Shown piece after piece: positions 38,868 to 40,117 of a stretch of DNA of 64,000 nucleotides (positions are counted from its first letter, which is position 1; every line of letters begins with the position of its first letter). A program made the position numbers and the translations under genes. The stretch is taken from the NCBI GenBank assembly GCA_964016885.1, contig OZ024747.1:17732001-17796000 (forward strand), read 5' to 3'. Origin of the DNA: Eledone cirrhosa (taxonomy: Eukaryota). The notes beneath the pieces were generated by a model that saw nothing but the letters and a program-made list of their open reading frames with translations, did no database searches and had not been told where the DNA came from.

Positions 38868-39815
38868 AAGTAGCAGCCTATTCCTTCTTTAATTTCTCTA
38901 CCCACAAACCAACACCAAAAATGTTAGGAACTATTGTAACATGTAAACTATGCATAAAGACTGGATGTTGACATCAAGAATACTACAGATCGTAGGTCTA
39001 CGTGACCCAAGCTAACCTAGAACTAAACAGCAGCAACCAGTGTCCACGACAATGACATTAACGCCATAAAATCTTATTTATCTTCTCATTTAAACTTGAT
39101 GCATTGCTACTATGGATAAGAAAATTTAATTTTCAGTGGCATTATAACTAAATCGCTGGTCTTTATGGAATCTGCAACAGAAATAGTGGGCTCTATTAAG
39201 AAGCAGTGTAAAGAAGAATTGTACAAAATTACGTATATATGTGTGTGTGTGTGTGTGTGTGTGTGTGTGTGTGTGTGTGTGTGTGTGTGTGTGTGTGTGT
39301 GTGTGTGTGTGTGTGTGTGTGTGTGTGTGTGTGTGTGTGTGTGTGTGTGTGTGTGTGTGTGTTTCTCGGAATGTGTATTCTTAATGTGTATGAACGACAA
39401 AGTACAATTGAACTGGGTATAAGAGAAATCAGATTGTGTGTACAAAAGAGATGGTTTCGATGATGTGGACATGTGATGCGTATGGTTAATGATCGTTCAG
39501 TGAAGTAGTGCCGGGAGAACAGAATAGAGTAAGACTGAGAAAGACCTGAGCAGATCTGAAGTTTACAGTGGAGATGACGGAGGATAGCAACAAAGTGGCT
39601 GCGTTGGAAAAGATATGTCCACTCTTTGCAAGTATGGCAGAAAGGATGACGATATATATATATATATATATATATATATATATATGTGTGTGTGTGTGTG
39701 TGTGTGTGTGTGTGTGTGTGTATGTGTGTGTGTGTGTGTGTGTGTGTGTGTGTGTGTGTGTGTGTGTGTGTGTGTGTGTGTGTGTGTGTGTGTGCATGTA
39801 TGTATATATATATAT

Positions 39816-40117
39816 AACGAAGGAAATGTGGTAAGGAACCAGGTGGACCATAACGCACCAAAGTACTCAATACTTAGGGTAGTAGAGTGGGTAATAGGAA
39901 CAAGTAAGACCCCGACGGCTGAGCTCAAGCCGTTTCGGCGGCTAATTCTGGACTAATTTCTACACTGCTTCTTAATTGAGTCCAGAATTAGCCGTCGAAA
40001 CGGCTTGAGCTCAGCCGTCGGGGTCCTACTCGTTCCTATTACCCACTCTACTACCCTAAGTATTGAGTACTTTGGTGCGTTATAGTCCACCTGGTTCCTT
40101 ACCACACTTCCTTCGTT
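39816..40117. mobile_element. Family A element with two full-length arms
   Basis: ~138-bp arms in inverted orientation; (TA)n flanks. Confidence 0.85.

Follow-up and report, generated by a model that had tools for sequence, protein, structure and literature searches.

Family A hairpins in the genome of Eledone cirrhosa are pairs of Penelope-like element (PLE) stubs set in a TA repeat, and the seam between the two stubs can carry a copy of DNA from the neighborhood of the insertion. The match between such fillers and local DNA is real and is general across this genome. We favor, with a probability of about two in three, a reading in which separately primed cDNA ends are joined on site by synthesis-dependent microhomology end joining. 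These seams represent a type of repair scar that is already known, here encountered in a new context, and they bear on the open question of how Penelope elements integrate.

A hairpin loop is copied from DNA about 750 bp away

The window, i.e. the whole stretch of DNA that was analyzed, comprises 64,000 nt of the forward strand of E. cirrhosa contig OZ024747.1 (assembly GCA_964016885.1, positions 17,732,001–17,796,000), from a 3.0-Gb animal genome rich in microsatellites. The hairpin and its surroundings contain the following features (window positions).

39187–39231, minus strand: donor with its context; in a local alignment, either edge bears a loose likeness to an arm end (9 of 11 at both, with gaps on one side)
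39195–39210, minus strand: filler donor, unique genomic DNA found inverted in the loop; exact 16-mer whose sole other genomic copy is the loop
39652–39815, no strand: left microsatellite flank, (AT)n(GT)n then (TA)n, the target site, from the sequence
39816–39954, minus strand: left arm, a tail-bearing (long) pseudo-LTR (pLTR) stub with 'AA' subfamily alleles, 99% identical to the pLTR of locus L032
39955–39978, plus strand: seam or loop of 24 nt, aligned as about six arm-like bases, the 16-nt filler and two bases
39961–39976, plus strand: locally templated filler, from its exact match, uniqueness and own-flank ranking
39979–40117, plus strand: right arm, a second long pLTR stub with 'GG' subfamily alleles, from alignment to the element and its alleles
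39990–40024, plus strand: 3' half of a hammerhead-like motif (GAAAC, stem III, GTC site), read from the sequence
40117–40216, no strand: right (TA)n flank, the target site, from the sequence

The two arms mismatch at five positions, and the 16-mer forms the middle of the unpaired loop between them. A first-pass annotation had reported this spacer as the exact reverse complement of 39195–39210, extending to 19 of 20 nt. Alignment confirmed this: 39961–39980 is identical to the inverted 39191–39210 at 19 of 20 positions, with the extension running toward the right arm. A pattern search of the whole genome (2,995,841,428 bases) returned exactly two matches to the 16-mer, the loop and the donor, and a control search with the reversed pattern returned one. 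Loop and donor lie ~750–770 bp apart, and by an arithmetic estimate the chance that one random genomic copy sits less than 1 kb away is ~7 × 10–7. When the ±2 kb flanks were resampled 2000 times with a first-order Markov model, no match to the loop was longer than 13 nt; across the other 60 kb of the window the longest was 10 nt.

The full element (L031 and L032) reads differently from the loop beyond the arm, hence the 16-mer is not element-derived; this and its uniqueness in the genome rule out that it belongs to the family consensus. The remaining family A copies in the window have other junctions, in line with the earlier statement that their loops differ. We refine the earlier reading in two respects: the window loop is a patchwork of a few arm-like bases, then the donor copy, then arm-like bases again, and foreign fillers make up a small minority of seams.

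Family A hairpins resemble paired stubs of a Hydra-type Penelope-like element

An arm search of the genome gave 1152 candidates, of which 40 were scored; 30 loci were fetched. Four of these 30 loci run on into a larger element. Because the arm sequence continues into a Penelope-like element, we read the arms as pLTR stubs, the long arm carrying the tail, and family A as a head-to-head pair of putative Hydra-type stubs in (TA)n. Over 139 nt, the left arm of the window hairpin matches the pLTR that precedes the ORF in L032 with 99% identity. This ORF (L032, 4417–6198) contains DIESYY, YRDD and a VIY..YIG region, which we take to be marks of a reverse transcriptase (RT) and a GIY-YIG nuclease. 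A single ORF with an RT plus a GIY-YIG nuclease at the C terminus, linked to the repeat, is a trait of EN+ PLEs, as is the arrangement of L031/L032 in tandem units of ~3.6 kb plus one inverted unit (partial tandems that form pLTRs). A Pfam search of the element ORF at 1e-3 found no domain match; the L032 ORF gave only a weak match to RVT_1 (E = 0.11), and searches of Pfam, PDB and Rfam returned nothing decisive. In L032, a second, distinct RT/GIY-YIG element adjoins the array at 7136–9659, with fragments on both strands.

The translations contain, by eye, SDKT, LRWR (R for K), CNCPDRSSC, CNLC and CKH. The Hydra clade is described as having DKT, an RWK-like motif, a CxCX5C linker, and CxxC and CxH around the nuclease E and N, together with insertion into (TA)n (PMC8557442, available text), and family A copies likewise insert in (TA)n. 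On these motifs, read by eye against the available text of that paper, the element is placed in the Hydra clade. An assignment to the Neptune clade was dropped on the evidence of the motifs. We also rejected a MITE or foldback DNA transposon, as the seams vary copy by copy and contain site-specific DNA, and the unequal arms belong to an RT element.

EN+ PLEs are expected to have a hammerhead ribozyme in the pLTR. A candidate hammerhead-like motif spans the inner end of the arm; full elements have its 5' half upstream, a half that the stub lacks. The full motif, with a long stem II, is present in L032, L081 and L082, with a core of CUGAGA in L081 and UUGA(U/G)A in L032 and L082; an Rfam search gave no hammerhead hit for it. 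The two putative cDNAs terminate close to one another, within the long stem II region of this motif.

Further family A copies of varied ages lie in the window at 1–114, 978–1240, 14372–14696, 30319–30521, 58054–58386 and 59802–59995; at 14372–14696 and 58054–58386 a second stub stands beside the first within the TA tract. Decayed matches (67–77%) to the ORF of the family A element occur at 55685–56547. An unrelated second inverted repeat (40213–40342) directly adjoins the right (TA)n flank. The window also has long, imperfect tandem arrays with trinucleotide-based or 74/223-bp units at 7269–8301, 18614–19723 and 24486–26458, which are candidates for mucin-like coding repeats or for minisatellites.

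Long loops often match their own flanks

Pattern searches for long-loop seams listed 50 of 646, 69 of 69, 50 of 239, 50 of 57 and ~50 of 125 matches. Most of the seams listed consist of poly(A)/poly(T), of more element sequence, or of arm-end repeats, direct or inverted and in many cases reiterated; seams in general are mostly blunt, poly(A)/poly(T) or arm-copied. We chose 55 loci by eye on the loop text, blind to the flanks, and fetched 10 kb around each; since they were picked in this way, they yield no frequency. With the window this gave 56 loci, five of which were dropped (element or microsatellite words throughout) and one of which could not be parsed, leaving 50. The part of each loop not derived from the element was scored against its own 10-kb flanks and against 49 other flanks, with family copies masked.

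Own flanks were the best match for 27 of the 50 loops (~1 expected), for 26 of 49 when the window was left out, and for 23 of the 32 loops with a residual of at least 20 nt. The check proposed in the first-pass annotation, loops against their own flanks, thus came out in favor of its suggestion that a polymerase had switched onto nearby target DNA while the arms were being joined. It is very improbable that the matches are due to chance or to an assembly or library chimera. The window 16-mer is unique in the genome and more than half of the loops rank their own flanks first, and fillers are not sequencing chimeras because they and their donors carry point differences. The window seam itself is as given by the assembly; four contig sets aligned to the hairpin contain no piece across it. 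We reject the chance reading.

The nine long residuals (of 32) that did not rank first comprise L118, L124, three that resemble element variants and four unexplained. L118 has a clear local donor inside a SINE. L094, L102, L110 and L126 have no explaining donor within 5 kb. The L124 seam (4962–5040, contig C5) is one 77-nt unit, 96% identical to a 76-bp tandem satellite at C7:29.23–29.30 Mb, perhaps captured in trans from RNA or circular DNA. Pure microsatellite fillers without an assignable donor were seen in L095, L098, L099, L113, L115, L134, L138 and L147. At L126 (4951–5050) and C2:275030634, the foreign seam sequence is itself palindromic, on both arms.

An automatic pass over 59 loci, taken as the first delivered in order and with ±1.3 kb flanks only, found six loops with at least 12 foreign bases: two with a true local donor (L091, L092), one explained via an element variant and three with none. 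This pass missed the TA-rich L070, which has a donor (seen in L109). These proportions put the share of hairpins with a mappable foreign patch at ~1%, as a rough estimate.

Anatomy of the local-donor events

We collected 26 events, the window and 25 other loci, by taking the first-ranked loci minus two with matches below 14 nt and adding L118. Matched lengths are 23–110 nt, long patches being enriched through the selection of loci. Donors lie 188–4617 bp from the loop (median 772), and the distance in the window is typical. The excess of local matches asked about in the first-pass annotation is present, the distances being far from uniform (KS p = 6 × 10–7). Exponential (1 kb) and 1/distance laws both fit (p = 0.81 and 0.49), thus the distances accommodate resection and chromatin looping alike. 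Fillers are direct in 14 events and inverted in 12, with donors on the left in 11 and on the right in 15.

Arm ends and donor edges share on average 1.35 nt of terminal microhomology, versus 0.39 nt at random flank sites (p = 2 × 10–4, 46 seam ends), an excess slightly inflated because arm ends were set as the longest match among variants. Many seam ends show extra bases in place of microhomology. Break-proximal and break-distal donor edges did not differ in microhomology (p = 0.64), so this comparison demonstrates neither resection nor the direction of priming. Look-alikes of the arm ends at donor edges occur at 0.08–0.10 per kb and were never paired in 1.05 Mb; the loose likeness of donor edges to arm ends that is striking in the window was not general in the other events (p = 0.34).

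Fillers mismatch their donors at 23 of 1294 positions (1.8%), and arms mismatch each other at 23 of 888 (2.6%, two indel loci left out). A mismatch of the same order roughly supports a similar age of fillers and arms, and only roughly, since from locus to locus the two divergences show no correlation (rho = 0.11, p = 0.58).

Seams can also hold sequence from elsewhere in the insertion. In L030, C9:29589110, C10:50193479 and C21:8844214, a (TA)n run is followed by the start of the short arm; such a seam either repeats the integration junction or records priming for a third time. The L131 seam (C3:4901610) contains element sequence from beyond the long-arm start, toward the ORF, which suggests copying from RNA or from a longer cDNA. 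L052, L080 and L085 carry four to five reiterated 11–13-nt arm units, and poly(A)/poly(T) is frequent.

Arm pairing and the origin of the two ends

A typical copy has a long arm of 143 nt and a short arm of 65 nt, head to head, with (TA)n at each end. Among 142 hairpins parsed from fetched loci, 133 were long+short, one long+long (the window copy), one short+short and seven other. Exact-anchor counts across the genome gave 9166 long+short, 63 long+long and 68 short+short hairpins, the last including a few false matches. Long+short hairpins thus account for ~99% of those counted; this pairing is near-obligatory and far from an independent choice of start sites, and the window copy is of a rare long+long type. 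A one-sided tail, a trait of EN+ PLEs, is found in 133 of 142 hairpins, the window copy itself being long+long; the tail extension is 78 nt, compared with 30–40 bp described for EN+ PLEs.

Subfamily alleles are nearly always common to both arms: only one of 133 long+short hairpins is discordant at both diagnostic sites. The arms of the window copy are discordant at both ('AA' versus 'GG'), and hence this copy was probably templated by two different RNAs. Discordance at both sites was also found in two of 15 fetched long+long loci and, by eye, in two of 50 of those listed; relative to 1/133 this is suggestive, not significant, of long+long hairpins deriving from two RNAs.

These observations bear on one of the two main rivals to joining at the landing site, that a ready-made hairpin formed by self-primed fold-back was inserted, and that its tip later broke as a cruciform and was patched by the host with local DNA. 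Perfect palindromes within TA tracts are fragile, and filler divergence is slightly under arm divergence, as later patching would have it. Fold-back would also produce the sharing of alleles seen in all but one of the long+short hairpins, and self-priming on an antisense template has already been proposed for head-to-head PLE copies (PMC3846280, available text). We nevertheless consider this explanation unlikely. The window copy and the two discordant fetched long+long loci join two subfamilies, which is impossible by fold-back. Nearly all seams differ, even those without foreign DNA, so nearly every copy would need to have broken; each arm meets (TA)n at a fixed RNA site of its own; and the arm ends and A/T tails of filled seams are as long as those of unfilled ones, in a set whose search patterns selected intact arms.

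Two further observations favor joining of separate ends at the landing site. Seams that copy the (TA)n-arm junction (L030, and three of 50 of those listed) support it because this junction exists only at the insertion site. In L123, A/T tails are retained on both arms next to the filler, hence the arm ends were not chewed back. Junction-copying seams and fillers between intact tails point to joining at integration.

A model for joining at the landing site

In the reading that we prefer, the element nuclease would cut both strands of (TA)n, and each cut 3' end would prime reverse transcription, normally one at the tail start and one at the inner start. A purified PLE protein is reported to cut and extend both strands, and to initiate at two RNA positions by which the tail is defined (PMC11167929, available text). 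Both cDNAs would halt near one place. As cDNAs of identical sequence cannot anneal, one cDNA 3' end would prime elsewhere, on 1–4 matching bases in any nearby template. This could be the partner cDNA or the TA tract, or else flank DNA no more than a few kb away that resection has probably left single-stranded. Some 15–110 nt would be copied before release and annealing to the partner. The likeliest copier is a host polymerase, with Pol theta as a candidate. The commoner seams, with their direct or inverted and often reiterated arm-end repeats, follow the SD-MMEJ/TINS pattern (PMC2943611, PMC7165422, available text); against this reading, donors are more distant and patches longer than is usual for Pol theta.

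The second main rival needs no host polymerase: the element RT would jump from the RNA end onto nearby DNA or nascent local RNA and copy the patch, after which the ends are joined. The A tails and the 4–5-fold 11–13-nt units seen here resemble products of terminal addition and telomerase-like slippage. Patches reach 110 nt with few errors, and the beyond-arm element sequence at C3:4901610 and the distant satellite unit in L124 are most easily obtained from RNA; L1 ORF2p has been suggested as the maker of such patches (PMC11702581, available text). Even so, donors compared by strand and side show no bias of the kind that transcripts would leave, and the arm-derived repeats and microhomology sizes suit host TMEJ equally well. 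We regard RT jumping as an improbable account of the seams; either the element RT or a host polymerase may have made a given patch.

A wider form of on-site joining, which we offer tentatively, is that PLE integration is obligatorily two-ended. One complex might prime both TA ends at two fixed sites of one RNA, the same-sequence cDNAs being sealed in place with DNA sampled from up to several kb away; seams would then map the reach of germline breaks (~1 kb), and the telomerase-related RT may do the patching through jumps onto DNA. Were this true, the seams would be a fossil map of break reach in the germline on a ~1 kb scale.

By carrying target-site DNA, the seams provide direct evidence at the sequence level that some of them at least arise at the landing site. 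By a rough, order-of-magnitude estimate, the genome may hold a hundred natural templated insertions from one animal germline, and these reach farther than those usually scored for Pol theta. Donor distance, strand and microhomology provide a simple readout for assays in cells or in vitro.

Comparison with known systems

For EN+ PLEs, insertions are known in which inverted pLTRs stand head to head and one side bears a tail (PMC3846280, PMC8557442, available text). Our hairpins share with them an inverted 5'-truncated copy beside a direct copy, a tail on one arm, (TA)n, and tandem full-length sources. The available text of both papers describes palindromes at the inverted junction and reports no seam copied from the target neighborhood; unlike the published copies, the stubs here are just 65 and 143 nt and number more than 9,000. 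The printed proposal for the head-to-head form is self-priming before integration (PMC3846280), and its formation is stated to be an open task (PMC8557442). In the article texts searched we found no report of local fillers at PLE seams, a point on which PLE supplementary figures may bear. Neither hairpins nor palindromes come up in the available text of a paper on octopus repeats (PMC13282606).

Patches templated by local DNA are the hallmark of Pol theta. With Pol theta TINS and SD-MMEJ (PMC7165422, PMC2943611, PMC12426944, available text), the seams have in common direct or inverted copies of neighboring sequence, 1–4 nt of microhomology at the priming or joining ends, and iterative patchwork. 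Pol theta insertions are 3–30 bp, generally <25 bp (PMC7165422, PMC12426944), and are scored near the break. The arm-derived seams and the window patch fall within this length (<~30 nt); the foreign patches, by contrast, measure 23–110 nt and come from 0.2–4.6 kb away (median 0.8 kb), and the joined ends are presumably two cDNAs. The seam would thus behave like a Pol theta templated insertion, and because patch length and distance exceed the usual we do not claim membership of that class.

In L1 twin priming, inversion junctions are end-joined and three inserts contain DNA from near the integration site (PMC11702581, available text), and ZfL2-2 carries extra 5' nucleotides from its flanks (PMC4245944, available text). 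Common to these systems and ours are an RT that extends both target ends, joining by NHEJ or MMEJ, and some local inserts. The two L1 cDNAs come from RNA segments that lie next to each other with almost no overlap, and only a minority of insertions are inverted (PMC11702581); in family A, by contrast, both putative cDNAs cover the same 65 nt, and the inverted long+short pair is the form taken by ~99% of counted hairpins.
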